Shown: positions 3,009 to 29,141, counted from the first letter of the stretch. The stretch: 32,000 nt of DNA from Breznakia sp. PF5-3 (GCF_029504745.1 NZ_JAQFIQ010000028.1:1-32000), one strand, 5' to 3'. Numbers and translations: made by a program. Notes: generated by a model from the letters alone, not told the origin.

Positions 3009-3013
3009 TTATA

Positions 3014-4127: not shown

Positions 4128-4697
4128 TTATTTAAATATTATAAAAATATCTTTACTGATGATGTCGCCACCTTTAAATGGTCCCAAAATTCTAGAATCT
4201 CTTGATATTCGTCGATTATCACCACACAAAAAATATTCATTATCTCCTAATACAATAGGTCCATAATCAGAAGTAAAATTAATAGCTCCTGCATTTGTTT
4301 GTTCTTTTACATAATCATCATCAAGAAAGTATTCTTCAACTGGATTTCCATTAACATAAAGGATATCATCCCGATATTGTATCGTTTCTCCTGGTAAACC
4401 AACTACTCGTTTAGCAAGATTCTTTTTTTCACTTTCATCATAGACAGTTACAATATCAAAACGTTTTAGTTCACCAAAATGACGATTCACAATTCCCGTC
4501 ACACCTATCTCTCCATCTTCCAATGTTGGATACATGCTATCGCCATTGACATAAATAGGACGAATAACACAAGTAAGTACCAACAAAGTAACAATTGTAA
4601 TTGGAAAAACAAGTTGAAGTATCCTTAAAATTTCAAGTTTTCGGTTGCTCTTTTTAATATCTTTTTTTATTTCTAAAATTCTATTTGATTGTTTCAT
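4128..4697 (-). CDS. lepB: type I signal peptidase (S26 family, Ser-Lys dyad), 189 aa
   Basis: N-terminal TM helix, GDSMYPTL (catalytic Ser box), AKRVVGLPGE (catalytic Lys box), GDNRRISRDSR box E. GGTGATG RBS before the ATG. Confidence 0.9.
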   Translation of the reverse strand: MKQSNRILEIKKDIKKSNRKLEILRILQLVFPITIVTLLVLTCVIRPIYVNGDSMYPTLEDGEIGVTGIVNRHFGELKRFDIVTVYDESEKKNLAKRVVGLPGETIQYRDDILYVNGNPVEEYFLDDDYVKEQTNAGAINFTSDYGPIVLGDNEYFLCGDNRRISRDSRILGPFKGGDIISKDIFIIFK

Positions 4698-4713
4698 ATA
4701 AACATCACCAACC

Positions 4714-5637
4714 TTACCTATTTTTATAACTTCTTTTTCTTTTATATAGTATCATAAATACAATACTTCCTAAAAGCAATATAAGAATATTAATTTTTAT
4801 ACTGTCACCAGTATTTATCTTATTTGTATTTCCATTTATAGGATCATTCACATCAAGTTGTAAACGAAATATAATCTCATCGTCTTCTTTTGCTGTATAC
4901 AATCCTGCATTATCTTCATTTAACGCTTTTATGTCCAAAACATTTCCATCAATAATTTTTTCACTACCACTTGATGCACTTTGAAAGTACCAAGTAACAT
5001 TATGATGTTCACTTACATCTGTTGACTCCATTCCTTGCACTTTGCTCCACATATCTTGTTCATAAACATATGTAGGACTTTCCATAAAACGAAGATCAAC
5101 AAAAAGCGAATCTCCAATATTTTGCCCATGGAAGTATACACCGTTTTGAAGTTGTTCATCTTTTACTTCGATATCATTCACAACTGCATGTAATGCATTT
5201 CCTTCATACATTATAAGTTTTGTAGAAGTATTACCTAAAACCCCTGAAGATAATAAGTTTGCATATTTCTCTGATGATCCATCAGGAACAACAATTTTCT
5301 TCAAATTGCTACAATCCAAAAAGGCATTTTTCCCAATATAATTAATCGTACCAGGAATACTTATCTCTTCTAGTTCTTTACTCCCAAGAAAAGCTTCACT
5401 TTCAATCGATGTCACTGTTCTCTTTTTATACACCTTCGGAATATCCACCTTTGAATCAAAACTCAAATAGCCGATGATTTGATAATCTTCATCAGCCAAT
5501 TGTTGATATTTAAAGTTATGGTCTTTACTAATAGCTCCAGTTGGTGTAGTAATCTGTGATATGCTTACAAAGATAAGCACTAGAAATATAAAAACTAAGA
5601 TTGTCTCCCTTAAAAATACCCTTTTTATTCCTCTCAT
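4714..5637 (-). CDS. surface protein with BspA-type leucine-rich repeats and a C-terminal sorting-like signal (307 aa)
   Basis: Signal/TM peptide. SIESEAFLGSKELEEISIPGTINYIGKNAFLDCSNLKKIVVP is the LRR_5/BspA pattern. The C-terminus is KINTGDS plus a hydrophobic helix plus KRKRSYKNR. The ATG is 3 nt after the upstream stop. Confidence 0.7.
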   Translation of the reverse strand: MRGIKRVFLRETILVFIFLVLIFVSISQITTPTGAISKDHNFKYQQLADEDYQIIGYLSFDSKVDIPKVYKKRTVTSIESEAFLGSKELEEISIPGTINYIGKNAFLDCSNLKKIVVPDGSSEKYANLLSSGVLGNTSTKLIMYEGNALHAVVNDIEVKDEQLQNGVYFHGQNIGDSLFVDLRFMESPTYVYEQDMWSKVQGMESTDVSEHHNVTWYFQSASSGSEKIIDGNVLDIKALNEDNAGLYTAKEDDEIIFRLQLDVNDPINGNTNKINTGDSIKINILILLLGSIVFMILYKRKRSYKNR

Positions 5638-5640
5638 ACA

Positions 5641-6807
5641 CTATTCAGATACAGAATCTGTTGTTGAATTCCCTTCACCTATTTTCATAGTTCCAGAGAT
5701 TTTTGCACCTTTTTCAATGTCAATATAAACAGCAGAAATATCTCCTAAAATCATAGCTTGACTTGAGAAAGAAATATCCGCTTTTGCAGTAACATTTCCT
5801 TCAATAGATCCATTGATTTCCATCGCTCTTGCTTGTACATTTCCTTTCACAAAAGTATCCTCACCAATATAAACGTCATTATTAACATTTATATTACCAA
5901 CAACTTTTCCACTATGTAAATTCAAAGACTGTGCTGTCACATCACCTGTAACAAGTGCATTTTCATCAAATTCAACACTTTTTCCACAAGTAAGATTTCC
6001 TCGAATTTCACCTCTTACAATAAGTGGTGTTTCAACACTCACATTCCCATCAATTACTAAGCCATTTCCAAATACAGAATATTCTTCTGAACTTGATGTT
6101 GAATGCCCCATATTTGCATTATTATCATTAACATTTTCATTATTCAAATCATTGTTATAATCCATTTTTCTTTCCTCCCTGTCAGAAACTACTTTTTCTT
6201 TCTTTATTTCTTTGACCATTGTAGGCTTATACTTTCTATTTGCAAACGAAGTCACTGGGCTCACTTCTTTAACTACCTCTTTTTCTTTCGGTGTATCGTC
6301 AATTGTGTTTACAGGACTAGTAACTTTCTTAATATCTTGTTTTGGATATTTAGACTGAATTAATATTCCTTCAACATCATTATTTAGCGCATATATTTTT
6401 TCACTTTCATTTTCAATGATTTCATTTATATATGCTAACACCGATGTGACATCCCTCAAGTCATAATCATCTAGTGCTTGTTCATTAAGAGATAAAATTA
6501 TCGAATTGCACCCCATTAACATTTCCGATAATGAATTAAATCTACTTTCAATATGTTTTTGTTTTAACAACTCTGAAATTTCTCGATCATGTTTCGATAT
6601 TTCTTTCAGTTGCTCCCACTCTTTTGAAAATAATTTATCGGATAATTCTTCGTAAGCAACTTTAGAAAGTTCTAACTCCTTTATATATTTCGTCTTTAAT
6701 ATTTTGCGAATCAAAAATGTTACTACAAATACTGCAACAAGCAAAATAAGAAGCGTTGCTATAAATGGAACAGAAAAAATATTTACAGCTGCTACAAAAT
6801 TAACCAT
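5641..6807 (-). CDS. membrane-anchored bactofilin-domain (polymer-forming cytoskeletal) protein, 388 aa
   Basis: N-terminal TM helix followed by RKILKTKYIK, a coiled-coil-like region, and an Asn-rich linker. The C-terminal ~130 aa has the beta-helical bactofilin repeat pattern (GNVSVETPLIVRGEIRGNLTCGKSVEFDENALVTGDVTAQSLNLHSGKVVGNINV...GNVTAKADISF...GDISAVYIDIEKGAKISG). RBS AAAGGAGAA. Confidence 0.75.
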   Translation of the reverse strand: MVNFVAAVNIFSVPFIATLLILLVAVFVVTFLIRKILKTKYIKELELSKVAYEELSDKLFSKEWEQLKEISKHDREISELLKQKHIESRFNSLSEMLMGCNSIILSLNEQALDDYDLRDVTSVLAYINEIIENESEKIYALNNDVEGILIQSKYPKQDIKKVTSPVNTIDDTPKEKEVVKEVSPVTSFANRKYKPTMVKEIKKEKVVSDREERKMDYNNDLNNENVNDNNANMGHSTSSSEEYSVFGNGLVIDGNVSVETPLIVRGEIRGNLTCGKSVEFDENALVTGDVTAQSLNLHSGKVVGNINVNNDVYIGEDTFVKGNVQARAMEINGSIEGNVTAKADISFSSQAMILGDISAVYIDIEKGAKISGTMKIGEGNSTTDSVSE

Positions 6808-6841
6808 ATATTCTCCTTTCTTTACTTACTATCATAATTTA

Positions 6842-6867
6842 GTCGCTTAAAAGCCTTTTAAGGTTCA
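6842..6867 (-). promoter_or_regulatory. ECF-type promoter candidate P3 (bactofilin-LRR-lepB operon)
   Basis: On the - strand: TGAACC-TTAAAAGGCTTTTAAG-CGAC (16-nt spacer), ending 34 nt upstream of ATG 6807. Same geometry as the motif upstream of the sigma gene. Confidence 0.55.
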
Positions 6868-7023
6868 CTATTTCCAGTATAAAGTGTATTTTTACCATCA
6901 TTTACCCGAAAAAGCTATGTTCTTTCATGCGAGTGCCCCATAATTATATTAGTCTCTATATACATTATAATATAATTTAAATTATTCGCCCAATCATATT
7001 ATCATTTATATTATAGGTTTTAA

Positions 7024-7059
7024 TATAAAAATATGCAAATACTATTCGTATTTGCATAT
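7024..7059 (-). terminator. rho-independent terminator after the 446-aa gene
   Basis: Perfect 12-bp stem ATATGCAAATAC/GTATTTGCATAT (7031-7059) with a 5-nt loop, followed on the - strand by TTTTTATATT. Confidence 0.8.
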
Positions 7060-7116
7060 CGTAATTTTTCCAAAATATAATATATGTTCAATAAATCATG
7101 TTTCATTTATAAATTT

Positions 7117-8457
7117 TTAAAAATCAATTTCGGCTGTGTAATAGTAATTAATTACTACTGGATCTGTTGATTTTTCCAATACAAAATCTCCACGATCTGC
7201 TCCTTGATAAGAGCTTTCTGTCAAGTCTCCAAATTTATATTTATAGTCTTCAATAACGATTGTTGTTCCTACTTCTAAAGTAACGACTTCTTCTTTATAA
7301 ACTCGATATTCCTCACCAAGACCTTCTGTATCTACCCAGTGGCGAATGATAATATCTTCTGTGTAATAAGTTGCGGCATTTGAGAAAACAACTTTATGGG
7401 TTCCACTTTTCTTTAATTGTGTCGCTTCTTTTCCTTTACAACATGCTTCATTTGTACGGTATCCAACAATGTTTCCATCCTTGAAGTTTGCACTATATGG
7501 ATCCCCAATCAAACCTTGACCATTATAGTAAATTCCTGCAGGTTCAGAATACCATTGATAGTTACCCATATAACACATATTTCTATTTACTGTTGGATAC
7601 ATAGCTGTAACATCAACAGCAACATCATCTGTAACAACCAATCCAGAATTTAAATATATTTCTTGAACCATTGCTCCACAGTATGCTCTTAACATTTGTT
7701 TATCTGCTTGTAATGCTGAAACTCCACTATAGATATTACGTGAAATTCCAGTAATTGAACTACCTGCACCTTCAGCTTGGATATGAGCAATTTGTGTTCT
7801 TGCTCCACAACTTCCACCTTCACCACTAACAGTTGCACCTTTCCACGCATAGATATCTCTGTATGCCCAAATTCCTGTGCTATCAGCTCCTGATGCATAA
7901 CCATATATTGATGCTGAATAATATGGTTTGATATCGTTATAACACCAAATACCATAATTTATTCCATACCCAGAAATTGATCCACCTTCCATTTGAATTT
8001 CGTTATATACACGAATTCCAGCTGTAGTTCCTGTTGCACTAACCGTTCCAACACCATTTTTAGTATATTTAAATGCTTTTAAATGACCACCAACATTAAT
8101 ACCAAATTCATCTGCTGTATTAGCATTCAAAGCTCCACTACCTCTAAACTCTAAGTCTTTTTTTGTATAAATAGAGTTCACATTTACTGGTACTGTATTA
8201 TTTAAATATATTTTTTGATCTCTTGAACTATAAATTACTGCATTTTCATTCAATAAATAAGTTCCTTTTTTAGTTGAAAGAATGTTACTACCATCCTTTT
8301 GTGTTGTTATTGTTGCATCATATCCTTTCAAGTCAATATTTCCACTTAAAACTGCATAGCTTGATGCATCCGCTTTAAATGAAAACGTTAAGACTGAAAA
8401 AACCGAAAAAATACTTAACATCACCATAAAACTTTTAAACATTTTGCGCTTCATCAT
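7117..8457 (-). CDS. secreted repeat protein of unknown function with a MucBP-like C-terminal domain (446 aa from ATG 8457)
   Basis: Signal peptide MMKRKMFKSFMVMLSIFSVFSVLTFSFKADA. Central Gly/Tyr/Trp-rich short repeats (GINYGIWCYNDI, STGIWAYRDIYAW, GIRVYNEIQMEGG) suggest a beta-solenoid. The C-terminal IIIRHWVDTEG...VVINYYYT resembles MucBP. No anchor is present. The track start at 8529 is a TTG that overlaps the putative promoter. Confidence 0.6.
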   Translation of the reverse strand: MMKRKMFKSFMVMLSIFSVFSVLTFSFKADASSYAVLSGNIDLKGYDATITTQKDGSNILSTKKGTYLLNENAVIYSSRDQKIYLNNTVPVNVNSIYTKKDLEFRGSGALNANTADEFGINVGGHLKAFKYTKNGVGTVSATGTTAGIRVYNEIQMEGGSISGYGINYGIWCYNDIKPYYSASIYGYASGADSTGIWAYRDIYAWKGATVSGEGGSCGARTQIAHIQAEGAGSSITGISRNIYSGVSALQADKQMLRAYCGAMVQEIYLNSGLVVTDDVAVDVTAMYPTVNRNMCYMGNYQWYSEPAGIYYNGQGLIGDPYSANFKDGNIVGYRTNEACCKGKEATQLKKSGTHKVVFSNAATYYTEDIIIRHWVDTEGLGEEYRVYKEEVVTLEVGTTIVIEDYKYKFGDLTESSYQGADRGDFVLEKSTDPVVINYYYTAEIDF

Positions 8458-8520
8458 AATTTCTTCATTTCCCTCGCTTTCATATGTATTTTTGGATTTA
8501 TTTACATATATCAAAAGTAT

Positions 8521-8546
8521 GTCGCGCAAGTCCTAAAAAAGGTTTT
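8521..8546 (-). promoter_or_regulatory. weaker ECF-type promoter candidate P4 (446-aa gene)
   Basis: On the - strand: AAAACC-TTTTTTAGGACTTGCG-CGAC, followed by ATAC. It shares GACTTnnGCGnCATAC with the sigma-gene promoter, but its -35 is AAAACC rather than TGAACC. Confidence 0.35.
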
Positions 8547-8635
8547 CTTTTTTCTAAAAAAAGTTGTTTTTTTCATAATTGTTGAACACCTAGTACATAT
8601 ATTAATTTATCATGTTTTCTTTTTTCTTCTTATCG

Positions 8636-8672
8636 ATAAAAAGCAGGTATAAAATATATCATTTATACCTGC
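8636..8672 (-). terminator. rho-independent terminator after the lipoprotein gene
   Basis: GCAGGTATAAA / TTTATACCTGC stem (8643-8672), followed on the - strand by TTTTTATCG. Confidence 0.8.
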
Positions 8673-8688
8673 ATTCATTTATAGCTAT

Positions 8689-9144
8689 TTATTCAATTTT
8701 TCCACAACTATATTCTTCTGCCTCTAATTCTTTTACTAGCTTTTTGATGTTTTTATATTCTTTTATTCCTAATTCTTTAACATCACCTTCACTTGCTTTA
8801 CTTGGATCAATTTCTATTTTCACTGATAATTTCTTTTTCTTCTTATCAACTGAAATATCAAATTCTAACCCTTTTTGCTTTTTGTTTGGATTTATATAGT
8901 CATTCTTATAAAGTTCTTCTAACTCTTCAATTTCATAATCTTCGAACAAGTAATCTGCTAATGCAGCCTCTCTTGTCACGATAATTTTTTCTACTTTTTT
9001 ATCACCATCGTATGTAGCTGTTACTTCGTCTACAATTTCTGATGATCCATAATCCAATTTACAAGTTACTTCTTTCGCTTTGCTTTCGCCTCCGCATCCT
9101 GCTAATACTAGTATTAGACTAAATATCATTACTACTTTTTTCAT
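8689..9144 (-). CDS. small lipoprotein (151 aa), YehR/DUF1307-like by pattern
   Basis: Lipobox LILVLAGC-GGESK. Lys/Glu-rich mature part. RBS GAAGGAGG before the ATG. Confidence 0.6.
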   Translation of the reverse strand: MKKVVMIFSLILVLAGCGGESKAKEVTCKLDYGSSEIVDEVTATYDGDKKVEKIIVTREAALADYLFEDYEIEELEELYKNDYINPNKKQKGLEFDISVDKKKKKLSVKIEIDPSKASEGDVKELGIKEYKNIKKLVKELEAEEYSCGKIE

Positions 9145-9209
9145 CTATAAGCCTCCTTCGCTTCATCTGATGTTATTTTCCTTCCCATAATTTATCATCA
9201 TTAGGAAGC

Positions 9210-9234: not shown

Positions 9235-9245
9235 CACTCTTATTA

Positions 9246-12200
9246 CTATTCTTCCTCTTCTTTTTTTCTTTTCACTAAGTAAATCACACTCATAAACGAT
9301 ATGATTCCCATTGCGAATAAACTATTTAAATTCGTATCATCACCTGTTGTTACAGCTGTACTTGGTTTTGATACAGTTGGAGGTGTTACAGATGGTTTTC
9401 TTCCTGGTGTTACAGTCACCTTAATCACTGTTGCATATTCTACACCTTCATGTTCAACACTCAACTTCACATCGTATACTCCACCAAGAATTGTACTTCC
9501 CTTAACTACTCTTAAGTGTTCTTGGTGTACAGCTATCGATTCTTTTGTTGGTGCCAATGCCCTAGTTTTTGAATTTATGATTACATCTGCTTCTGACAAT
9601 TCTAATACTTTTGCTTCATTCATGTTTGATGCTTCAGCATGTGAAATTGTGAAATCTTTCGCTGTAATATCTAGAGCTGTTTTCGTTACATTTACATTCA
9701 CTGTAACTTTTGTTGTTGGTTCTTTCACTACATGGAATGTTACTTGATATACACCAGCTTCTCCTATTACATTATGACTCTCTACTTCAACTTTTGCGCT
9801 TGAAAGATCTTTCTTCAACCATGCCTCTGCTTCTGTTAAAGCAATCAATTGATCATTTGTAATTGTTTCTGCTGTGTGTGAGTTTATTGTAATATGGTTT
9901 GCCCCAATATAATATTTATCACCTTTCACAATCACATCTTTTGCTTTTACCTTAATTTTAATAGTTGCTTTTGTATCTTTTTCTTCATCCACATAGAATG
10001 TTGCTGTGTAATCACCTTCAGCCGCCTTAAAGTCTGTTGTTTCCAACTTCACTGTTCCTGCACTCATATCTTTACGTTTGAATGCTTCCGCTTTTGATAA
10101 CTCAATTAATTTTGTATTGTCACTAATTGCTTCTGCTTCTGCTAGTGTCATCACTAAATTGTTGGCAACAATTGTATATTCATCTCCGTGTTCGATAACA
10201 TTTCCATCTTTTACTTTGATTTTGATTGTTGCTTTTGTATCTTTTTCTTCATCCACATAGAATGTTGCTGTGTAGTCACCTTCAGCGGCCTTGAAGTTTG
10301 TTGTTTCAAGTTTTACAGTTCCAGCACTCATATCTTTACGTTTGAATGCTTCTGCTTTTGATAATTTAATTAACTCATTGTTATTTTTAATTGCTTCAGC
10401 TTCTTCCAATGTCATTACTAAATTGTTAGCTCCGATTGTGTATTCATCTCCGTGCTCAATTACATCTTTATCGATTACTTTGATTTTAATCGTTGCTTTT
10501 GTTGCTTTTTCTTCATCTACATAGAACGTTGCTGTATAGTCACCCTTAGCCGCCTTGAAGTTTGTTGTTTCCAACTTCACTGTTCCAGCACTCATATCTT
10601 TGCGCTTGAATGCTTCTGCTTTTGATAACTCAATTAATTTCGTATTGTCACTAATCGCTTTCGCTTCATCTAGTGTCATTACTAAGTTGTTTGCTCCGAT
10701 TGTGTATTCATCTCCGTGCTCGATTACATCTTTATCGATTACTTTGATTTTAATCGTTGCTTTTGTTGCTTTTTCTTCATCTACATAGAATGTTGCTGTG
10801 TAGTCACCTTTCGCTGCTGTAAAGTTTGTTGTTTCAAGTTTTACTGTTCCAGCACTCATATCATCACGATTAATTGCTACAGCTTTTGATAACTCAATTA
10901 ATTTCGTATTGTCAGTGATTGCTTTTGCTTCATCTAATGTCATTACTAAGTTGTTTGCTCCGATTGTATACTTATCTCCATGTTCGATTACATCTTTATC
11001 GATTACTTTGATTTTAATCGTTGCTTTTGTATCTTTTTCTTCATCTACATAGAATGTCGCTGTATAGTTACCTTTCGCTGCTGTAAAGTTTGTTGTTTCC
11101 AGCTTCACTGTTCCCACACTCATATCTTTACGTTTGAATGCTTCTGCTTTTGATAACTCAATCAGTTTTGTATTGTCACTAATTGCTTTCGCTTCATCTA
11201 GTGTCATTACTAAGTTGTTTGCAACTAGTGTATATTTATCTCCGTGTTCAATTACATTTCCATCTTTTACTTTGATCTTAATAGTCACTTTCGTTGCTTT
11301 TTCTTCATCTACATAGAATGTTGCTGTATAGTCACCCTTAGCTGCTGTAAAGTCTGTTGTTTCAAGTTTTACTGTTCCTGCACTCATATCTTTACGTTTG
11401 AATGCTTCTGCTTTTGATAACTCAATCAGTTTCGTATTGTCACTAATTGCTTTCGCTTCATCTAGTGTCATTACTAAGTTGTTTGCTCCAATTGTATACT
11501 TATCTCCGTGTTCGATTACATCTTTATCGATTACTTTGATTTTTACTGTTACTTTCGTTGCTTTTTCTTCATCTACATAGAATGTTGCTGTGTAATCACC
11601 CTTAGCTGCTGTAAAGTTTGTTGTTTCAAGTTTTACTGTTCCTTTGCTTAGGTCTTCTAACTTCCATGCTTCTGCTTTCGCTTTTTTAACTAACTCACTG
11701 TTGTCTGTCATCGCTTTCGCTTCATCGACTGTCATTACAATGTTGCTAGCTACTAGTGTATACTTGTCGCCTTCTTTGATTACATCGCCATCTACTACTT
11801 TCGCGATTGCTTTCACTTCATCTTTTGGATCCGTTGCTGCTTTCACTTTGATAACTACTTCGTAATCTTTGACTTCTGCTTTATATCCACCATTGTCTTT
11901 CACCATCAAGTCTGCACTTGGTACTGGCAATCCTGTTGCGATTGACCATGCTTTTGCTTCTGTCTTTTCTAAGATTTCAGCGTCTGTTCCGGTTACATCA
12001 TCTTTCAAGATTACATAGTTATGTAAGTCATATGCATAATCTTTTCCTACATACAATCCTACTGCTACTACTCTTGATTTCTTAACTGTATTGTAGTCAC
12101 TGTCAGTTACACTGTATTCTACTACATACATTCCTTTTTTCGATGTATCTACAGTTCCTGTTGATATTACTTTACTTGTAATATCTTTATCTTCTTCATC

Positions 12201-15200
12201 GTATGCACTAACTCCATGTTTGTAGTCATATGCATCCCCAATATTTAAACTCATGAATTCTGGATTCACTGTTAATACTGGCGCATTTCCGTTCACTACT
12301 TTTACAGCTACACGAACTTCTGTTGCTGGTTCTTCTGCTACATAGAATGTAACATAGTATGTTCCTACGGTTCCTTCAACATTGTGTGTTTTCACTTTTA
12401 CTGTTCCTGCACTCATGTCTTTACGTTTGAACGCTTCTGCTTTTGTAAGATCAATCAATTGATCATTAGTAATACTTTCGGCAACACTTCTTGTGATTTC
12501 AATGTTGTTAGCTCCGATTGTATACTTATCTCCATGTTCGATTACATCTTTATCGATTACTTTGATTTTAATCGTTGCTTTTGTATCTTTTTCTTCATCT
12601 ACATAGAATGTCGCTGTGTAGTCACCTTTTGCTGCTGTAAAGTTTGTTGTTTCAAGTTTTACTGTTCCTGCACTCATATCATCACGATTAATTGCTACAG
12701 CTTTTGATAACTCAATCAGTTTTGTGTTGTCAGTGATTGCTTTCGCTTCATCGACTGTCATTACTAAGTTGTTAGCTCCGATTGTATACTTATCTCCGTG
12801 TTCGATTACATCTTTATCGATTACTTTGATTTTAATCGCTGCTTTCGTTGCTTTTTCTTCATCTACATAGAATGTTGCTGTGTAGTCTCCATTAGCTGCC
12901 TTGAAGTTTGTTGTTTCAAGTTTTACTGTTCCCACACTCATATCTTTACGTTTGAATGCTTCTGCTTTCGATAACTCAATCAGTTTTGTATTGTCACTAA
13001 CCGCTTTCGCTTCATCTAGTGTCATTACTAAGTTGTTGGCAACGATTGTATATTCATCTCCATGTTCAATGACATTTCCATCTTTTACTTTGATCTTAAT
13101 TGTTACTTTCGTCGCTTTTTCTTCATCCACATAGAATGTTGCTGTGTAGTCACCTTCTGCTGCCTTGAAGTTTGTTGTTTCAAGCTTTACTGTTCCTGCA
13201 CTCATATCTTTACGTTTGAATGCTTCTGCTTTCGATAACTCAATCAGTTTTGTATTGTCACTAACCGCTTTCGCTTCATCTAGTGTCATTACTAAGTTGT
13301 TTGCTCCGATTGTATACTTATCTCCATGTTCGATTACATCTTTATCGATTACTTTGATTTTTACTGTTACTTTCGTTGCTTTTTCTTCATCCACATAGAA
13401 TGTTGCTGTATAGTCTCCCTTAGCTGCTGTAAAGTTTGTTGTTTCAAGTTTTACTGTTCCTTTGCTTAGGTCTTCTAACTTCCATGCTTCCGCTTTCGAT
13501 AACTCAATCAGTTTTGTATTGTCACTAACCGCTTTCGCTTCATCGACTGTCATTACAATGTTGCTAGCTACTAGTGTATACTTGTCTCCTTCTTTGATTA
13601 CATCGCCATCTACTACTTTTGCGATTGCTTTCACTTCATCTTTTGGATCCGTTGCCGCTTTCACTTTGATAACTACTTCATAATCTTTGACTTCTGCCTT
13701 GTATCCACCATTGTCTTTCACCATCAAGTCTGCACTTGGTACTGGCAATCCTGTTGCGATTGACCATGCTTTTGCTTCTGTCTTTTCTAAGATTTCTGCA
13801 TCTGTTCCTGTTACATCATCTTTCAAGATTACATAGTTGTGTAAATCATATGCATAATCTTTTCCTACATACAATCCTACTGCTACTACTCTTGATTTTT
13901 TAACTGTATTGTAGTCACTGTCAGTTACACTGTATTCTACTACATACATTCCTTTTTTCGATGTATCAACAGTTCCTGTTGATATTACTTTACTTGTAAT
14001 ATCTTTATCTTCTTCATCATATGCACTAACTCCATGTTTGTAGTCATATGTATCTCCAATATTTAAACTCATGAATTCTGGATTCACTGTTAATACTGGT
14101 GCATTTCCGTTCACTACTTTTACAGATACACGAACTTCTGTTGCTGGTTCTTCTGCTACATAGAATGTAACATAGTATGTTCCTACGGTTCCTTCAACAT
14201 TGTGTGTTTTCACTTTTACTGTTCCTACACTCATGTCTTTACGTTTGAACGCTTCTGCTTTTGTAAGATCAATCAATTGATCATTAGTAATACTTTCAGC
14301 TACACTTCTTGTAATTTCAATGTTGTTTGCTCCGATTGTATACTTATCTCCGTGCTCGATTACATCTTTATCGATTACTTTAATTTTAATCGTTGCTTTC
14401 GTTGCTTTTTCTTCATCTACATAGAATGTCGCTGTGTAGTCACCCTTAGCTGCTGTAAAGTTTGTTGTTTCAAGCTTTACTGTTCCTGCACTCATGTCTT
14501 TACGTTTGAATGCTTCTGCTTTTGATAACTCAATCAGTTTTGTGTTGTCACTAATTGCTTTCGCTTCATCTAGTGTCATTACTAAGTTGTTTGCTCCGAT
14601 TGTATACTTATCTCCGTGTTCGATTACATCTTTATCGATTACTTTGATTTTAATCGTTGCTTTTGTTGCTTTTTCTTCATCTACATAGAATGTTGCTGTA
14701 TAGTCACCCTTAGCTGCGGCAAAGTTTGTTGTTTCAAGTTTTACTGTTCCTTTGCTTAGGTCTTCTAACTTCCATGCTTCTGCTTTCGCTTTGCCTACTA
14801 ACTCACTGTTGTCTGTCATCGCTTTCGCTTCATCGACTGTCATTACAATGTTGCTAGCTACTAGTGTATACTTGTCACCTTCTTTGATTACATCGCCATC
14901 TACTACTTTCGCAATTGCTTTCACTTCATCTTTTGGATCTGTTGCTGCTTTTGCTTTGATAACTACTTCGTAATCTTTGACTTCTGCTTTATATCCACCA
15001 TTGTCTTTTACCATGATTTCCGATTGTGCAAGTTTTAAACCTGTTTTCGTTGACCATGCTTCTACTTCTGTCTTTTCTAAGATTTCTGCGTCTGTTCCTG
15101 TTACATCATCTTTCAAGATTACATAGTTGTGTAAATCATATGCATAATCTTTTCCTACATACAATCCTACTGCTACTACTCTTGATTTTTTAACTATATT

Positions 15201-18200: not shown

Positions 18201-21200
18201 TTTCGCTTCATCGACTGTCATTACAATGTTGCTAGCTACTAGTGTATACTTGTCGCCTTCTTTGATTACATCGCCATCTACTACTTTCGCAATTGCTTTC
18301 ACTTCATCTTTTGGATCTGTTGCTGCTTTTGCTTTGATAACTACTTCGTAATCTTTGACTTCTGCTTTATATCCACCATTGTCTTTTACCATGATTTCCG
18401 ATTGTGCAAGTTTTAAACCTGTTTTCGTTGACCATGCTTCTACTTCTGTCTTTTCTAAGATTTCAGCATCTGTTCCGGTTACATCATCTTTCAAGATTAC
18501 ATAGTTATGTAAGTCATATGCATAATCTTTTCCTACATACAATCCTACTGCTACTACTCTTGATTTCTTAACTGTATTGTAGTCACTGTCAGTTACACTG
18601 TATTCTACTACATACATTCCTTTTTTCGATGTATCTACAGTTCCTGTTGATATTACTTTACTTGTAATATCTTTATCTTCTTCATCGTATGCACTAACTC
18701 CATGTTTGTAGTCATATGCATCCCCAATATTTAAACTCATGAATTCTGGATTCACTGTTAATACTGGTGCATTTCCATTAATTACAGTTACTTTAACTTT
18801 TACAGTTGTTGATGGATGTTCTTTCACTTGGTAAACAACATAATAATCTGTTGAAGTAGTATCAGTTCCAATATTCGCTTCTTTCACTTCTACTGCTACT
18901 GTACTAAAGTCTTTTACTTTCCATCCTTCTGCATTACCCCAATTAATTAAATTATCATTTGTATAATTTTCTGCTTGGCTTCTTGTAATTGTAATGTTAT
19001 TTGCTCCAATTGCATAATGATCTTCTGATGTTAATTCATCTTTCTTCATTACTTTAATTGTAATTGTTGCTTTTGTATCTTTTTCTTCATCTACATAGAA
19101 TGTTGCTGTATAAGTACCTTCTGCTGCTTTGAAATCTGTTGTTTCAAGTTTTACTGTTCCTGCACTCATATCATCACGATTAATTGCTACAGCTTTTGAT
19201 AACTCAATCAGTTTTGTGTTGTCAGTGATTGCTTTCGCTTGCTCAACATTCATCACTAAGTTATTAGCTCCGATTGTATATTTGCTACCTGTTTCAATCA
19301 CATGCTTGTCGATTACTTTGATTTTAATCGTTGCTTTTGTTGCTTTTTCTTCATCTACATAGAATATCGCTGTATAGTCACCCTTAGCTGCTGTAAAGTT
19401 TGTTGTTTCAAGTTTTACTGTTCCTGCACTCATGTCTTTACGTTTGAATGCTTCTGCTTTTGATAACTCAATCAGTTTTGTATTGTCACTAATTGCTTTC
19501 GCTTCATCTAGTGTCATTACTAAGTTGTTTGCAACTAGTGTATATTTATCTCCGTGTTCAATGACATTTCCATCTTTTACTTTGATCTTAATAGTTACTT
19601 TCGTTGCTTTTTCTTCATCTACATAGAATGTTGCTGTGTAGTCACCTTCAGCTGCCTTGAAGTTTGTTGTTTCAAGTTTTACTGTTCCAGCACTCATATC
19701 TTTACGTTTGAATGCTTCTGCTTTTGATAACTCAATCAGTTTTGTATTGTCACTAATCGCTTTCGCTTCATCTAGTGTCATTACTAAGTTGTTTGCTCCG
19801 ATTGTATACTTATCTCCGTGTTCGATTACATCTTTATCGATTACTTTGATTTTTACTGTTACTTTCGTTGCTTTTTCTTCATCCACATAGAATGTCGCTG
19901 TATAGTCTCCCTTAGCTGCTGTAAAGTTTGTTGTTTCAAGTTTTACTGTTCCTTTGCTTAGGTCTTCTAACTTCCATGCTTCTGCTTTCGCTTTTTTAAC
20001 TAACTCACTGTTGTCTGTCATCGCTTTCGCTTCATCGACTGTCATTACAATGTTGCTAGCTACTAGTGTATACTTGTCGCCTTCTTTGATTACATCGCCA
20101 TCTACTACTTTCGCGATTGCTTTCACTTCATCTTTTGGATCCGTTGCTGCTTTCACTTTGATAACTACTTCGTAATCTTTGACTTCTGCTTTATATCCAC
20201 CATTGTCTTTCACCATCAAGTCTGCACTTGGTATTGGCAGTCCTGTTGCGATTGACCATGCTTTTGCTTCTGTCTTTTCTAAGATTTCAGCATCTGTTCC
20301 GGTTACATCATCTTTCAAGATTACATAGTTATGTAAGTCATATGCATAATCTTTTCCTACATACAATCCTACTGCTACTACTCTTGATTTCTTAACTGTA
20401 TTGTAGTCACTGTCAGTTACACTGTATTCTACTACATACATTCCTTTTTTCGATGTATCTACAGTTCCTGTTGATATTACTTTACTTGTAATATCTTTAT
20501 CTTCTTCATCATATGCACTAACTCCATGTTTGTAGTCATATGCATCCCCAATATTTAAACTCATGAATTCTGGATTCACTGTTAATACTGGTGCTTTTCC
20601 ATTAATTACGTTTACATCTACCGTTGCTTTTACACTTGGATCTGCATCTACCTTGAAAGTCGCTTTATATAATGATGCAACTCCCTTTACAGTATGTGTA
20701 TCTAAGGATACTGCTACTTCACTACGATCAGATCTCTTCCATCCTTTCGCACCTGTCAACGATTTTAATTCTGTCGCTGCATATGTTGCATTATCTTCGA
20801 TTTTCTTTGCTTCACCTAAGCGAATCTCAATATGGTTTGCTCCTATGATATATTCATCATTTACTTCTACTACATCATATGGTAATACTTCAAAGGTTAC
20901 TTCTTTTGTGATAGTTTCTTCTTTTCCTACACTAAAGACTACCTTATATTCTCCAGCTTCTGCTTTATATCCACCTTTTGATTTAACTTTTACAGGTGTT
21001 TCTGTACCTAAAGATGTATCGATTGCTTTCGCTTTCGCTAAATTAATAAAGTCTTGATCATCTACTACTAATTTAGCATTATCTAACCCGATGATTACAT
21101 CATTTGCACTAATCGTATATAACACTTTTTGAACAATCACTTTCGTTGCTGCTTTAAAAGTAGCATCGTGATAATCTTTTGTTGCTACTGGATTTTTATT

Positions 21201-23878: not shown

Positions 23879-23903
23879 TTATTTTTTAAAAAAATTGAAA
23901 AAT

Positions 23904-26579
23904 TTATTGTAAACCTTCAAGATTGCGTTTTTTCCAAAATTTGCATAATAAACAGCCACTTAAACTAAGTAAAAATAAATTGAATTCTATCCTTTCACCA
24001 TGTCTATCTCCTGCGGAAACAACTGCCTTGCTAAGGGTTTCATTCTCACTTTGCATTGACTTGCTTTTTCCACCAGCGATACTCATAGCATTCTTCGCAT
24101 CAACAACCACCTCTACAGAAAGTTCACCTTCTATAGAATTCCCTGAATAGTCTTGTGCGATCGCTGAAAAAGTTAACTTAAAGACACCTCCTTCTATGTT
24201 GACTTCATTTATTTTTTTTAGTTGTTTTTCATTTACTTTTATAATATTGTCATTACTTTTTTCGTCCAGTTTATGATATATCTTAATTTCCGCTTCCCCA
24301 ATAGCATCTTCTGCTTGTAAAGCTTTCGCTTCATCATACGTCAGATGTATATTTCTACCTGAAATTATCATTTCCTCATTTGGTCCAATTGGATATGTAT
24401 TATTACCATAAACGGTTACTGTAACTTTTTTACTTACTTCATAGTTGTTTGCTTTTATTGTATATAGCAGTTCAAACACACCACCTTGTGATGATACATT
24501 TTTAATCTGCTGCCATTGTTCTTCATGTATGCCAATACTACTACCAACATCAGCAAATCCACTTATTTGTCCATCGGTTGTTCGTTTCATCAAAAATGAG
24601 CGAACGTTAGATTTACTTATTGCTTGACTCTTTGTTAAGCTTTGCACTTCATCATATGTAAATTGCAGATTATCTGCACCAATTACTAGATTTGATAAAC
24701 TATCCATAACACTATTTCTATTTGTTATTAATACTTGAATTGTTTTTGTTCCTTTTTTACCATCCTTATTTATTGCTTCATAATTAACATCATAGATTCC
24801 AATAGCATTAAATTCTGCATTCCCATTCTTAAGTGCATAATGAATATCATCATAATCAATTGCTTGTTTTATTGGTTCTGCACCAATAGTATCCTGTGCC
24901 TTTAACCAATATGCATCCACACGATTTCGAATACTATAATCTATATTCGTATTTCCCAGTTCATATTTTTGTGGTTTCGCAAGAATTACAGGCTGACCAT
25001 GAACTTTTATTTTTCTTTGATATGTTGCACTATAGCCTTCTGTATCTTCGATTGAATAGGTCACTTGATAAGTCCCTGCTTTTTTATTGTTAATATTCGT
25101 AGATGCAACCTCAACATCACTTGTAATATCATTTCCTAAGATATCGTATGCTTTCACATCTTTCATCAAATCATATGTATCGCCTACGTATAATTCTATG
25201 TCATTTGCTGTAAAGCTTGGTTCTTCCCACCAAATAATCGGTTGGGTTACTTCTCCAACATACCATGTATCATCACCAAAATAATTTAATGAATATTGAT
25301 AAACATCATCGGCAGTTGGATCTAGTGTTAATTCAATTGATTCATATGTTTGTCCATCTATTGTCATTGGAATTGTATTCCCATAACGATCTTTCACAAT
25401 TGATGTAACTATAACCTTTCCAGTTGCTTTATCACCAATTAATGAAGTCTCATTTGTATAGCGTTGACCCTGATTATTGTTTGGATCTTGATATGGATCT
25501 GCATCAGAATTATGTCTTACATAAACAACAGCAGAAACATTCGCTAACGCTGATAAATCCGTAACATGATTGTTATTAAGCCAAATTGCTGCATTTCCAT
25601 TTGTAGTAATTGTTGCTAATGGTGATATATCCGTAATATTGTTATTAGATAACTGCAATATATTAATCTTTGTAAGATTTGATAAAGGCGTGATATCGGT
25701 AATATTGTTATGATTTAATATAAGTCGCTTAGCATCTGTATAATGTTCAAAAATACTAATATCTGTAATATTGTTATTTTGAAAATGAAATACTACTTCT
25801 GGAATACAATCTGTTATTGGCAAAGTATTTAAATCATCATCATCAATGCCATTATTATTAAACATAATTTGCTCATCCAAATTTGGAAACCTAGAAGCTG
25901 TTAAAATTGAAAAATCATGAATCTCATTGGTTCCTGTGTTCCAATTATTAAATTCCATCTGAGATAAATATGGATAAACAGTATTGCGCATTGGCTCTAA
26001 ACTTTTAATATTGTGATCATTCAAATAAATATAACGTAGTGAAGTCATATACTCAATCCCTTGAAGATCACGAATACGTTTAGTAGGATTATTTTCAATA
26101 TAATAAATACTATCTACCTGTCCCAAATCCTCGATTGTGAAATTGCTATCTAAACCCTTTTCAAACACTAGGTAATTATAAAAGTTAATATCTGGAACAA
26201 GATCAATCCCTGTAGCAGCACGAGTAGAAATTTGCTTTTGGATTTCTGTAATTTGAATTTCTTGTGTTGCCTTAGTTACCTTATTATCCATTTCATAAGT
26301 AATTGTTAAAGTATATACACCATTTTCTTCAATGATAATAGTAGGATCATTTATATCTAAAATAGTATCTTCAAATACAAGTTCACGAATTCCATATGTT
26401 TGTATTGCTTCTTTCGAGATGTTAATCTTAGCTCTTTGATTATGCAACTCATAGAAAGTAGTATATGTTAACGTAAAATTCTCATCTGCATCAGCTTCAT
26501 TTAAAAGTACAAAACAACTAATTAGTAAATATGAAAACACGATACATATAAATTTTACAAAATTTTGTTTATACCTCAT
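23904..26579 (-). CDS. internalin-like LRR surface protein (891 aa from ATG 26579)
   Basis: Signal peptide MRYKQNFVKFICIVFSYLLISCFVLLNEADA with GAAGG RBS. About 22-aa LRRs (LILNHNNITDITPLSNLTKINILQLSNNNITDISPLATI...LNNNHVTDLSALANV). A DUF5011/Big-like domain (FTANDIELYVGDTYDLMKDVKAYDILGNDITSDVEVASTNINNKKAGTYQVTYSIED). Two modules related to the giant protein's 88-aa module. The C-terminus is VVSAGD plus a hydrophobic segment plus KKRN. Confidence 0.8.
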   Translation of the reverse strand: MRYKQNFVKFICIVFSYLLISCFVLLNEADADENFTLTYTTFYELHNQRAKINISKEAIQTYGIRELVFEDTILDINDPTIIIEENGVYTLTITYEMDNKVTKATQEIQITEIQKQISTRAATGIDLVPDINFYNYLVFEKGLDSNFTIEDLGQVDSIYYIENNPTKRIRDLQGIEYMTSLRYIYLNDHNIKSLEPMRNTVYPYLSQMEFNNWNTGTNEIHDFSILTASRFPNLDEQIMFNNNGIDDDDLNTLPITDCIPEVVFHFQNNNITDISIFEHYTDAKRLILNHNNITDITPLSNLTKINILQLSNNNITDISPLATITTNGNAAIWLNNNHVTDLSALANVSAVVYVRHNSDADPYQDPNNNQGQRYTNETSLIGDKATGKVIVTSIVKDRYGNTIPMTIDGQTYESIELTLDPTADDVYQYSLNYFGDDTWYVGEVTQPIIWWEEPSFTANDIELYVGDTYDLMKDVKAYDILGNDITSDVEVASTNINNKKAGTYQVTYSIEDTEGYSATYQRKIKVHGQPVILAKPQKYELGNTNIDYSIRNRVDAYWLKAQDTIGAEPIKQAIDYDDIHYALKNGNAEFNAIGIYDVNYEAINKDGKKGTKTIQVLITNRNSVMDSLSNLVIGADNLQFTYDEVQSLTKSQAISKSNVRSFLMKRTTDGQISGFADVGSSIGIHEEQWQQIKNVSSQGGVFELLYTIKANNYEVSKKVTVTVYGNNTYPIGPNEEMIISGRNIHLTYDEAKALQAEDAIGEAEIKIYHKLDEKSNDNIIKVNEKQLKKINEVNIEGGVFKLTFSAIAQDYSGNSIEGELSVEVVVDAKNAMSIAGGKSKSMQSENETLSKAVVSAGDRHGERIEFNLFLLSLSGCLLCKFWKKRNLEGLQ

Positions 26580-27759
26580 TACGCACAACCTTCTTTCTCT
26601 TTTGATAGTATAGATAAATAAGTACAATCAATAATGATATAATAAATGGAATTGCACTAATCAACAGTTTGAATGGAAAAGATTTTTCGGCATTAATTTT
26701 AAGTTTAGTAAAAAAATCAATATAGAATCTCTCAGGCGAAGAAACTATTTTACTATCATATTCTGTGTATATACTTCCTTCAATGATTTTATCCACACGA
26801 TAGGATAATCCTGATTTTGATATTTCATCCTTTTGGTACAATGCATACACAACTGTATCCTCTGTGATATCATGCAAATCTTCCGACCACCCTAAAAATG
26901 TATTATTATTTTTCTTCGGTCCTGCAATGGCTTCACCATCATCTCCATAATTTACAAAAGTTTGATAATAAAGTTCATTATCTACATAATATGAAACACG
27001 ATATTGCTTAATCACAAATGTAGCATATAAATTCATTGATTTTTTTATCTTTTCGCCATTATAAAAAAAACCTTTTCCATCTAACTGTGTATTAAAGCCA
27101 AGAAAACGATATCCTTTTTTCGAAACAAGTGGAGTATCTACTACTTGATTATTTTTCACCTTTATTTGTTTCAACAATATCGTTCCATCATAGAAATTAA
27201 CTGTATGAGTTGTATTATTGAATCCAAACTTTCCTCGAAACGCATGTTCATAGGTTTCGCTTTTATCACCCATGGTAATTTCACTAGATAATATTTTCAT
27301 ATCTACACTGATTTTATCTCGTGAAGACCCGATTGTCATAACTTCTAAATCATAAGTTGTTTTCGTACTATTTAAAGCAATCGCTTTTCCATTATTGAGA
27401 TAAGAAGTATATTCATCCTGTGAAGCATTACGACCATTAATTTTTAATACTCCCTTATAATAATCTTTAAATTTGATACCTTCTTTTTCTATAAATAAAA
27501 TTTTAGAGTCAACCACTCCTGAATGATTCACTACATTCATTGTAATTTTAACAGTTGATCCATAAGGAACATCTGTAGTACTCTCTAGGCTATATGCCTG
27601 TCCTGAAGCAGATATTACTTTAGCACTTGAAGATAGTGACAAATCAAAGTAAACCTCTTTTGCTTCCACGCTAAAAATACCAGTGAGTAAACTAAACACC
27701 ACTGATATCGTTAACACTGCAAATGTTACTACCTTTCTTATTGTCCCTGTCTTATTCAT
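26569..27759 (-). CDS. membrane protein with two InlB-B / Listeria-Bacteroides (Flg_new) repeats (396 aa from ATG 27759)
   Basis: Signal peptide MNKTGTIRKVVTFAVLTISVVFSLLTGIFSVEA. HTVNFYDG...KKGYRFLGFNTQLDGKG...NLYATF and YRVSYYVDNE...NNTFLGWSEDLHDITEDTVVYALY fit the repeat pattern. C-terminal TM helix plus QKRKK. The alternative TTG start at 27777 lacks an SD. The stop overlaps the next ATG by 11 nt. Confidence 0.75.
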   Translation of the reverse strand: MNKTGTIRKVVTFAVLTISVVFSLLTGIFSVEAKEVYFDLSLSSSAKVISASGQAYSLESTTDVPYGSTVKITMNVVNHSGVVDSKILFIEKEGIKFKDYYKGVLKINGRNASQDEYTSYLNNGKAIALNSTKTTYDLEVMTIGSSRDKISVDMKILSSEITMGDKSETYEHAFRGKFGFNNTTHTVNFYDGTILLKQIKVKNNQVVDTPLVSKKGYRFLGFNTQLDGKGFFYNGEKIKKSMNLYATFVIKQYRVSYYVDNELYYQTFVNYGDDGEAIAGPKKNNNTFLGWSEDLHDITEDTVVYALYQKDEISKSGLSYRVDKIIEGSIYTEYDSKIVSSPERFYIDFFTKLKINAEKSFPFKLLISAIPFIISLLIVLIYLYYQKRKKVVRNEV

Positions 27760-27766
27760 ATTCGCC

Positions 27767-29086
27767 CTAACTTTCAATATTCACTATATAAGAAATCATA
27801 TTTCCTGATTTATCATAAATAGTTACATAAACCTCTCCTTCAAATTCTTTTTTTATTTCGCCATTTTTTGGAATTGCTATTTTCTCTTCTTTATACAAAA
27901 TATAAGATGAAGCATAATTTAGCCCTAAACCTTCATCTTTTAATTTGACTGATAAAGTTCCATCTTCATAACCAATATCAACCATCTCTGGTGCTTTTTT
28001 ATCAATATTGTCAATCGATATTTTTTGAATATCCTCAGCAACTTTGATTGTATAATCACCATTTCTTTCAACTTGGAATGATAAAACATCATTCTGGATA
28101 TCAAAAGCAATCGCTTCCTTTCCTTGTTTTACATTAACTTTAGATTTCTCAACATTCTTATTTAACTTTGCTTTTACTTCAATTTTCTTATTTGTTGGTT
28201 CTTGATAATAACTTATATCTAGAATTTGTGGTGTCTCTGTATTCAAGTTTTGATATACCACATAACTTCCTGCAGCTCCTAATCCAAGGATTCCTACAAG
28301 TGCCGCTTTTGCTATATCAGATATAAAATTACCTCCTATCGCCGCTGCTGGAACAACCACAGATGCGGCATTGGATCCAGAATGAATAATTTTGTTATAG
28401 ATTTCAGTCGCTCCACTCGTAGACATCTTATTTTTTTGAATAATGTCAGCAAACAATCGATATGCGAATGGGGTAAACGTAAACCCGAAATACTTAGCTG
28501 GAGAATATCCTCGTTCTGCTAATCCAGGTTTAATAACTTTCCTAATTCTTCTAAGTCTTGTTTTTACTGTACCTTCTGGTATCTTTAGTATATAGGCAAT
28601 CTCATTAATTGATAGCCCTTCATAATACTTCAACATCCCGACTTCAAAAAACTTATCAGAAAGTTGATTAAGTTCTGATTTAATCGCATCATAAACTTCT
28701 TTACTTTCTACTTCGTGTACTTGATCATTATCAACACGAATAATTTCTTCTAAATTTGTCTCTTCGTTTAAATCAACTTGTTTTGATCGTTTACGGTAAA
28801 GCGATTGTGAACGATTAAACGCAATCGTGAAAAGCCAAGAATGAAAAGCTTTATTAGACTTTAAAACTTGGATATTTTCAAATACATTCACAAATGTTTC
28901 CTGTACAATTTCTTCTGCATCTGCTGCATTCTTCATCAACTTCAAACCAAAGTAATAAATCGAGTCCCGATAAAAATCATATATCACATTAAATGCTTCA
29001 ATATCACCATTACGAAAACGTTCGATATATTCAACATCGATTTCTCTTCGATTTCCTGTTTTTTTATACTCTTTCTTGGATTTCAT
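27767..29086 (-). CDS. ECF-type sigma-70 family factor fused to a TM segment and a C-terminal extracytoplasmic domain (439 aa)
   Basis: Region 2 at aa ~25-98 (AEEIVQETFVNVFENI..., FHSWLFTIAFNRSQSLYRKR). Region 4 at aa ~138-187 (LSINEIAYILKIPEGTVKTRLRRIRKVI). Hydrophobic segment at aa ~241-278 (IAKAALVGILGLGAAGSYVVY). A beta-rich tail of 160 aa follows. No region 3 and no stop codon between the parts. Confidence 0.85.
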   Translation of the reverse strand: MKSKKEYKKTGNRREIDVEYIERFRNGDIEAFNVIYDFYRDSIYYFGLKLMKNAADAEEIVQETFVNVFENIQVLKSNKAFHSWLFTIAFNRSQSLYRKRSKQVDLNEETNLEEIIRVDNDQVHEVESKEVYDAIKSELNQLSDKFFEVGMLKYYEGLSINEIAYILKIPEGTVKTRLRRIRKVIKPGLAERGYSPAKYFGFTFTPFAYRLFADIIQKNKMSTSGATEIYNKIIHSGSNAASVVVPAAAIGGNFISDIAKAALVGILGLGAAGSYVVYQNLNTETPQILDISYYQEPTNKKIEVKAKLNKNVEKSKVNVKQGKEAIAFDIQNDVLSFQVERNGDYTIKVAEDIQKISIDNIDKKAPEMVDIGYEDGTLSVKLKDEGLGLNYASSYILYKEEKIAIPKNGEIKKEFEGEVYVTIYDKSGNMISYIVNIES

Positions 29087-29115
29087 AAAGTATCGCCCCC
29101 ATCCACTTCATGTAT

Positions 29116-29141
29116 GACGCTTAAGTCAGCGAAAAAGTTCA
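29116..29141 (-). promoter_or_regulatory. ECF-type promoter candidate P1 (autoregulatory, sigma operon)
   Basis: On the - strand: TGAACT-TTTTCGCTGACTTAAG-CGTC (16-nt spacer), followed by ATAC, ending 29 nt upstream of ATG 29086. It lies directly downstream of the terminator that insulates it from grcA. Confidence 0.6.

Follow-up and report, generated by a model that had tools for sequence, protein, structure and literature searches.

Which regulator switches on the large surface proteins of a Breznakia species, and how is that regulator itself activated? The question is raised by a 32,000-nt stretch of DNA from Breznakia sp. PF5-3 (Erysipelotrichales; NZ_JAQFIQ010000028.1:1-32000), here called the window, which contains a surface-protein island of ~25 kb with all genes co-directional on the - strand (as are all island features given below). 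In the order of transcription, the island encodes an extracytoplasmic function (ECF) sigma factor with a predicted membrane anchor, a 402-aa membrane protein (hereafter the +1 partner), a 907-aa protein with leucine-rich repeats (LRR), a 4841-aa giant adhesin, a 151-aa lipoprotein, a 446-aa secreted protein, a bactofilin, a 307-aa LRR protein and a type I signal peptidase. How gut bacteria attach to hosts and particles is believed to be shaped by giant adhesins and LRR surface proteins. The original prediction, made from the sequence of the window, proposed that an envelope-anchored, one-component ECF sigma factor reads four copies of a promoter motif in the island, one of them before its own gene. 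Our analysis makes it probable that the island is governed by an autoregulated, membrane-tethered ECF sigma factor that drives a local surface-protein regulon. Such a module would represent a compact, testable circuit (one sigma factor, four putative promoters and a defined output), with a promoter code readable from comparative data.

Four putative promoter sites in the island

An exact pattern search agrees with the predicted positions, strand and common geometry of the four motif copies: WRAACY-N16-CGWC has exactly four matches in the window, all of them on the - strand and in intergenic gaps. P1 (29116..29141; TGAACT-N16-CGTC-ATAC), a putative autoregulatory ECF promoter, lies 29 nt upstream of the start codon of the sigma gene; P2 (23853..23878; TGAACC-N16-CGTC-TTAC) is a putative promoter 81 nt upstream of the adhesin gene, P3 (6842..6867; TGAACC-N16-CGAC-TAAA) a putative promoter 34 nt upstream of the bactofilin-LRR-signal peptidase operon, and P4 (8521..8546; AAAACC-N16-CGAC-ATAC) a weaker putative variant 63 nt upstream of the gene for the 446-aa protein. 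Distances were measured from the last base of CGWC to the start codon, for P4 to the ATG at 8457 that gives the 446-aa protein, and thus span 29-81 nt. The terminator scan revealed two terminator-like hairpins, one closing the adhesin-lipoprotein unit (8643..8672) and one after the 446-aa gene (7030..7060). In the direction of transcription (8672-8643 and 7060-7030) they separate the units, so that P4 and P3 head units of their own, in line with the predicted placement of the motif at unit heads. Between the 907-aa gene and P2 the scan gave no terminator, so that read-through from P1 is possible. A scan for sigma-70-type promoters gave counts equal to the shuffle expectation, and none of the four unit heads has a convincing housekeeping promoter. 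Reading of the sequence also verified the spacer and discriminator sequence said to be shared by P1 and P2 (TGACTTAnGCGTCnTAC) and the TTAAGCG common to P1 and P3; GACTT-N3-CGAC-ATAC of P4 is also common to P1.

The four matches compare with 0.33 expected, and at least four were reached in 0/100 shuffles of the window. Since the degenerate pattern was written once the sites were known, this statistic alone is weak, and the sites could represent a chance, post hoc pattern; the spacer sequence common to P1 and P2 also makes it conceivable that they are copies of a duplicated intergenic cassette, without promoter function. Hence, tests independent of the window were carried out.

The motif in related loci

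The comparison comprised 13 related loci with full-length homologues of the sigma factor (L001, L081, L083, L085 and L087-L095; 24-59% identity to the window sigma factor). A scan of a genome collection with the full-length sigma alignment was swamped by generic ECF sigma factors, and L001 was the only true family member in it. In 11 of the 13 loci (29-59% sigma identity) the motif is found again before sigma orthologues and the surface-protein genes beside them, which bears out its conservation at orthologous loci. The two blocks were found by eye before the sigma operon and large surface-protein genes in L081, L083, L085, L087, L088 and L090, and motif sites precede the sigma operon in these six loci as well as in L091, L092 and L093. 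The site orthologous to P3 (L081, position 7222) reads TGAACC-N16-CGAC-TAAC, sites equivalent to P2 precede large adhesin genes in L081, L083, L085, L090 and L091, and the AAAACC -35 variant of P4 is also found at L089 6568 and L091 5527.

A position weight matrix (PWM) of 42 nt, built from 13 sites of the non-window loci only, ranked P3 (score: 24.6), P2 (20.9), P1 (16.8) and P4 (13.2) first to fourth among 63,918 window positions. The fifth-best match (10.8) lies within a coding region, and the lowest score of the four sites falls to P4, which had been called the weaker one. Most of the information content lies in the -35 and -10 blocks, with spacers diverged between orthologous sites. A prospective scan was made of four loci fetched after the PWM had been built: the best matches lie upstream of the sigma gene (117, 316) and of the adhesin gene (5527) in L091, upstream of the small gene preceding the sigma gene in L092, upstream of such a small gene and of the sigma gene itself (4373) in L093, and upstream of a divergent 1207-aa gene in L094, where only a weak site (score: 10.8) is found upstream of the sigma gene. 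The pattern TGAACN-N16-NRWCWWA has 28 matches in 195,859 bp (13 loci, i.e. the window and 12 related loci, with L095 left out) vs 3.8 +/- 2.1 in shuffles; 23 of the 28 are intergenic (8% of the sequence), always beside the sigma cluster. Finally, a blind search that enumerated 44,665 spaced dyads from intergenic sequence of 10 loci other than the window reported GAACC-N17-GTCT, together with its reverse-strand form, at the top (p = 2.8e-9), the next unrelated dyad having p = 1.4e-4.

Judged by the PWM ranking, the prospective scan, the cross-locus count and the blind dyad search, all of them sequence comparisons, the motif is real and conserved across loci. The same comparative tests support the predicted ECF type of the promoters. 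In form they agree with the ECF promoters published for Bacillus (PMC5758882), which have an AAC-containing -35 followed by a T-tract, and a -10 with CGT/CGAC/CGTC. An origin of the four sites by chance or by duplication is largely refuted by the four tests, and we regard it as very improbable: a matrix without window sites places them at ranks 1-4, blind discovery elsewhere recovers the same motif, the -35 and -10 blocks but not the spacers are conserved between orthologous sites, and the sites across the loci lie on the coding strand, 29-125 nt before start codons.

Some further sites stand apart from this pattern. In L083 (~3000-3092) TGGAACC-N15-CGTC precedes a surface-protein cluster (510 aa and 1031 aa, Big_3) that adjoins the sigma island, and its different spacing suggests that another ECF sigma factor may read it. 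Good motif sites are also found downstream of the gene for the +1 partner in L092 (6140), L093 (7152), L088 (12812) and L087 (15042). Behind the sites in L092 and L093 there is no long open reading frame (ORF), only a 34-aa ORF in L093, and in L088 and L087 the available sequence ends shortly past the site; such sites may be left over from an adhesin gene that was lost, or may act as promoters of small genes without annotation. In the distant family member L095 (24% identity) the sigma gene shares an overlap with the histidine-kinase gene before it, within an operon that includes LytTR-type two-component genes. Two units downstream (6380-6490 and 10740-10830) have a different motif in common, TCT(A)CGTCTTTnTATATGA, and a sortase gene is located nearby.

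The sigma factor, its anchor and its partner

The sigma gene (27767..29086) encodes a 439-aa protein with 100% rounded BLASTP identity (two residue differences) to an NCBI protein of "unclassified Breznakia". Pfam identified Sigma70_r2 (aa 38-102), Sigma70_r4_2 (aa 134-183) and Sigma70_ECF, and the TIGR02937 ECF superfamily model was matched with 85.8 bits vs a cut-off of 42.9. Together with the AlphaFold2 (AF2) model, Foldseek and hydropathy, these searches delimit sigma2 (~aa 20-102), sigma4 (~aa 130-190), a linker (190-257), a transmembrane (TM) helix (~258-280) and an ectodomain (285-439). The top Foldseek matches of the ~190-aa core are SigW (5wuq, 33% identity), AlgU, sigmaE and SigH. 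SigW is also the best match among the NCBIfam equivalog models, and the protein scores below the cut-off of every one of them (SigW models NF007223: 114.5 bits vs 209; TIGR02948: 104.8 bits vs 243). On the strength of these model scores it is an ECF sigma factor, not a SigW orthologue.

The AF2 model of the full protein, built with 18 sequences, shows sigma2 and sigma4 with mostly moderate to good confidence, residues 196-283 with pLDDT < 50 and helices at 206-218, 223-240 and 258-280, and an all-beta ectodomain (aa 285-439, ~155 aa; pLDDT ~90) that according to Foldseek resembles tandem Ig/FN3 domains. Neither the linker nor the ectodomain has a Pfam match even at E <= 5. Pfam and inspection for Cys/His residues revealed no FecR N-terminal or zinc-finger ZAS anti-sigma domain between sigma4 and the membrane, residues 186-285 being devoid of a Cys/His motif. 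The protein has no N-terminal signal peptide and a single predicted TM helix, which is Gly/Ala-rich, as anchors across the family often are. Among 151 relatives the anchor consists of Lys/Arg followed by an uncharged stretch (median 23 aa; median KD15 hydropathy peak 2.15), a pattern that fits a single-pass topology with the N-terminus inside and the C-terminus outside the cell, as we infer for the family.

Two other ideas about these regions were considered. The hydrophobic segment could be a cleavable, signal-peptide-like element; the ~23-aa uncharged stretch fits a TM anchor instead, and we keep this idea at low probability. The ectodomain as a sensor homologous to the adhesin was rejected, as BLASTP against all island and neighbour proteins gave no similarity.

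A profile search of 1.84 billion cluster representatives found at least 150 full-length relatives at E <= 1e-52 and 1434 at E <= 1e-30. The family thus counts at least 150 clusters at 50% identity, mostly from metagenome assemblies; a second, word-indexed homologue search with a broader alignment made almost no additions and gave no taxon names beyond Breznakia. Such a large unannotated family of ECF sigma factors with a single-pass tether offers a tractable case for how a membrane-attached sigma factor is switched on.

No separate cognate anti-sigma gene lies beside the sigma gene, and the fused extension takes that place. Directly behind it is the gene of the +1 partner (26569..27777; 402 aa), which encodes a signal peptide, a weak Flg_new match in Pfam and a C-terminal TM anchor. 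The +1 partner has no cytoplasmic N-terminal domain and no anti-sigma match in Pfam or NCBIfam (indeed no NCBIfam match of any kind). Its orthologues directly follow the sigma gene in 10 loci, which suggests that the sensory unit may comprise two proteins. Of the predicted "one-component" membrane-tethered ECF sigma factor, the ECF core and the anchor are therefore borne out, and the one-component nature is not established. The conserved gene order is sigma factor, +1 partner, LRR protein and giant adhesin.

Which sigma factor reads the motif

The motif accompanies the sigma gene into unrelated chromosomal contexts and mostly precedes the sigma operon itself. Its -10 tetramer varies between loci, being CG[TA]C in the window, L081 and L091, CAAC (twice) in L083, GAAC (twice) in L090 and TGTC in L087, L088, L092, L093 and L094. 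Within loci the -10 identity is 3.39/4 vs 2.53 with permuted site labels, a value reached in 0/20,000 permutations, or in 2/20,000 if the TGTC clade, whose members are closely related, is counted as a single locus. Moreover, the paralogues L083 and L089, both from GCA_029504775.1, have different motifs. The joint travel of motif and sigma gene, the site before the sigma operon, the locus-specific -10 and the differing motifs of paralogues suggest that P1-P4 are read by the adjacent tethered sigma factor, which would thereby regulate its own gene. The lineage-specific -10 variants (CGWC, CAAC, GAAC, TGTC) would provide a natural set of possibly orthogonal sigma/promoter pairs.

The motif could also be a real ECF promoter read by another ECF sigma factor of the genome, a canonical one like SigW, SigX, SigM or SigV, with the tethered protein a member of the regulon or a co-reader. 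The window motif is indeed near the generic AAC/CGTC consensus on which the B. subtilis ECF sigma factors overlap (PMC5758882), and the core of the tethered protein is SigW-like. A common reader would however have to be reconciled with a motif that moves with the sigma gene into unrelated contexts and precedes it in most loci, with a -10 that is locus-specific rather than uniform, and with paralogues in the same genome (L083 vs L089) that differ in motif; we therefore regard it as unlikely.

Four loci of the TGTC clade have a small gene for 111-117 aa immediately before the sigma gene (L087 9504-9857, L088 8586-8930, L092 2916-3251, L093 3065-3403), each with its own strong, motif-bearing putative promoter. 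The encoded proteins match only sigma4 and the linker that follows it (sigma aa 129-234, 29% identity), and could act as decoys or regulators of the tethered sigma factor.

Proposed mechanism and activation

According to the model that we prefer, RNA polymerase with the tethered sigma factor would recognise TGAACC-N16-CG[TA]C-[TA][TA]A promoters. P1 would drive the genes of the sigma factor, its 402-aa partner and the LRR protein, resulting in positive autoregulation, P2 those of the 4841-aa adhesin and the lipoprotein, P4 that of the 446-aa secreted protein, and P3 those of the membrane-anchored bactofilin, a BspA-type LRR protein and the accessory signal peptidase I. The C-terminal domain is predicted to be outside the cell and, perhaps jointly with the +1 partner, to detect a cue from the surface or envelope. 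This would be followed by two cuts of the tether, the first outside the membrane (site 1) and the second within the Gly/Ala-rich helix by a site-2 protease of the RasP/RseP type, freeing the sigma domain. Such release by regulated proteolysis is suggested by analogy with IutY and with what has been proposed for ECF48/52/53 (PMC8999054, PMC5411451). The signal peptidase is the only protease encoded in the window, and it would most simply process the burst of co-induced secreted proteins.

The role of the signal peptidase and the fate of the tether could be conceived differently, and two versions were considered jointly. In the first, the tether is part of a self-amplifying proteolytic switch, with the sigma-controlled signal peptidase acting as the site-1 protease for the juxtamembrane segment of the sigma factor, so that induction would feed forward on release. 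In L081 the genes of the signal peptidase and the sigma factor are neighbours in one operon, the peptidase gene coming first, and the 45-nt gap between them lacks the motif; a feed-forward role of the peptidase is conceivable but unsupported. In the second version the tether is never cut, and the membrane-bound sigma factor would be active, linking the transcription of neighbouring genes for secreted proteins to the translocon; the Ig-like ectodomain and the +1 partner would report on the adhesin or on surface contact. Taken together we consider these two versions rather unlikely; if true, either one would represent a new mode of ECF control for an unstudied family of at least 150 clusters.

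The more general proposal that the tethered sigma factor is never released, being either active at the membrane in a holoenzyme near the translocon or a permanently inactive decoy, is compatible with the lack of a recognisable anti-sigma domain in the linker, with a linker (~65 aa) long enough in principle to reach RNA polymerase, and with the local position of all putative targets, which encode membrane or secreted proteins. Against it, the Gly/Ala-rich TM helix is similar to substrates of site-2 proteases, which have destabilised helices. Proteolytic release is, moreover, required by the sigma/anti-sigma hybrids that have been characterised, such as IutY (PMC8999054, PMC5411451), and we judge the absence of any release to be quite unlikely.

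Several observations weigh against an autoregulated sigma factor that is released from its tether to drive the island. L001, from a Coprobacillaceae metagenome-assembled genome, has no strong site and only two weak CAAACT-N16-xxACTA candidates in the PWM scan, and the bactofilin operon of L090 is without the motif. Copies of the motif may exist elsewhere in the genome as well, or a different ECF sigma factor may read it, overlapping recognition of CGTC promoters being documented for the ECF sigma factors of B. subtilis (PMC5758882). The linker (aa 196-283) is modelled with low confidence and lacks both a Pfam match and zinc-finger residues, and thus gives no indication that it inhibits the sigma factor or is cleaved. 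In some members of the family the TM helix is weakly hydrophobic (KD19 peak 1.3-1.5). Finally, the bactofilin-LRR-signal peptidase trio, linked to the sigma gene in the window, L081 and L090, was not seen in the examined DNA of most other loci and hence does not belong to the core of the module. On balance, the autoregulated, tethered sigma factor remains in our view the probable explanation of the locus.

Genes of the island and its flanks

The predicted identities of the island genes (sigma factor, giant adhesin, LRR proteins, bactofilin, signal peptidase) hold by Pfam and NCBIfam. Behind the +1 partner is the gene of the 907-aa surface protein (23904..26627; likely start at the ATG giving MRYKQNF), with LRR_4 and Bact_surface_Ig-like matches in Pfam and a C-terminal TM anchor, which is syntenic in L081, L083, L090 and L091. 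The 4841-aa adhesin (9246..23771) comprises a pectate-lyase-like head, Ig-like repeats and a C-terminal TM segment with a basic tail; several arrays of 264-bp (88-aa) tandem repeats with 81-87% identity occupy positions 9947-19953 of its gene and are liable to copy-number variation and assembly collapse. The gene of the 151-aa lipoprotein (8689..9144; sequence reading and Pfam scan) has no motif match upstream in the PWM scan of the window and is probably co-transcribed with the adhesin gene. The 446-aa secreted protein (7117..8457; sequence reading and Pfam) has a weak Cthe_2159 match and no NCBIfam match. The last unit encodes a 388-aa bactofilin with an N-terminal TM segment (5641..6807; Pfam Bactofilin, 3.5e-25; orthologues in L081 and L090), a 307-aa BspA-type LRR surface protein with a C-terminal TM anchor (4714..5637; Pfam LRR_5) and a 189-aa type I signal peptidase, the accessory copy in the island (4128..4697; Peptidase_S26, 2.2e-38; TIGR02227 above cut-off). 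The 402-aa, 907-aa, adhesin and 307-aa LRR proteins all end in a hydrophobic segment with a basic tail, and no LPXTG motif is present in any of the island surface proteins examined; judging from these C-termini, their anchoring appears to be sortase-independent. Control of the adhesin by a c-di-GMP riboswitch is not indicated, as the Rfam scan of the window revealed no riboswitch or other known RNA in the leaders.

The island is flanked by a GrcA-like ORF and DegV genes on one side and by a PerR/rubrerythrin pair on the other. Directly upstream of P1 lies the 77-aa GrcA/YfiD-like ORF (29238-29471, -) with an RVSGYAV motif, followed by a long-loop hairpin with a T-run, and beyond this ORF are three tandem DegV-family paralogues (29553-31973). 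The left flank (187-3968) encodes a copper P-type ATPase (+) with heavy-metal-binding domains at both its N- and C-terminus, as well as a Fur/PerR-like regulator and a rubrerythrin (-); it is unrelated to the island and marks its boundary.

Comparison with known systems

The closest sequence and structure matches of the sigma core are the B. subtilis factors SigW, SigX, SigM and SigV (5wuq), and their promoters share with ours the tGAAC-type -35, the ~16-nt spacing, the CGTC/CGAC -10, the T-tract and, as predicted for the Breznakia protein, autoregulation (PMC5758882). Unlike the Breznakia protein, they are free sigma factors held by separate anti-sigma factors (RsiW and others), and their regulons are stress responses rather than adhesins.

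A type I signal peptidase is part of other ECF cascades of Firmicutes, since RsiV and RsiP undergo site-1 cleavage by signal peptidases (PMC4183432, PMC8844934) in the SigV and SigP systems, and Breznakia encodes an accessory one in its putative regulon. In contrast to those systems, the peptidase was not seen in the examined DNA of most loci of the Breznakia family, and the processing of secreted proteins is the simpler role for it. SipW in the tapA-sipW-tasA operon of B. subtilis is a comparable case of a signal peptidase that processes co-induced secreted proteins.

In its organisation the module is also like SigI/RsgI of Clostridium thermocellum (PMC4711584), with multiple paralogous sigma modules that carry extracellular sensing domains and with locus-specific promoters for large extracellular protein assemblies. 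However, SigI is not an ECF sigma factor and RsgI is a separate anti-sigma protein (PMC4711584).

The original prediction did not recognise the module as a described system, and this holds for the family but not for the general architecture. Our literature searches found no description of the Breznakia-type tethered sigma family, and the main text of PMC7826278 makes no mention of a Firmicutes ECF group with a single-TM, Ig-like extension. On the other hand, ECF sigma factors with membrane-spanning C-terminal extensions have been described, including ECF263, ECF48/52/53 and IutY (PMC7826278, PMC8999054). Among them are sigma/anti-sigma hybrids activated by regulated proteolysis (PMC8999054), such as IutY of Pseudomonas putida (ECF243) and the actinobacterial ECF48/52/53, e.g. 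SCO4117 (PMC8999054, PMC5411451, PMC5826349). As in IutY and ECF48/52/53, the ECF core of the Breznakia protein is C-terminally fused to a membrane-spanning extension with an extracytoplasmic sensory part (according to the topology inferred here), there is no separate canonical anti-sigma gene, and regulated proteolysis of the tether is expected. It differs from this class in that no FecR-like or zinc-finger anti-sigma domain is detectable, in its ectodomain, a pair of Ig-like beta sandwiches without a Pfam match, in its Gram-positive gut host from the Erysipelotrichales (Firmicutes), in the conserved +1 membrane partner, and in a putative regulon that is a giant-adhesin island, where theirs serve iron uptake or development.

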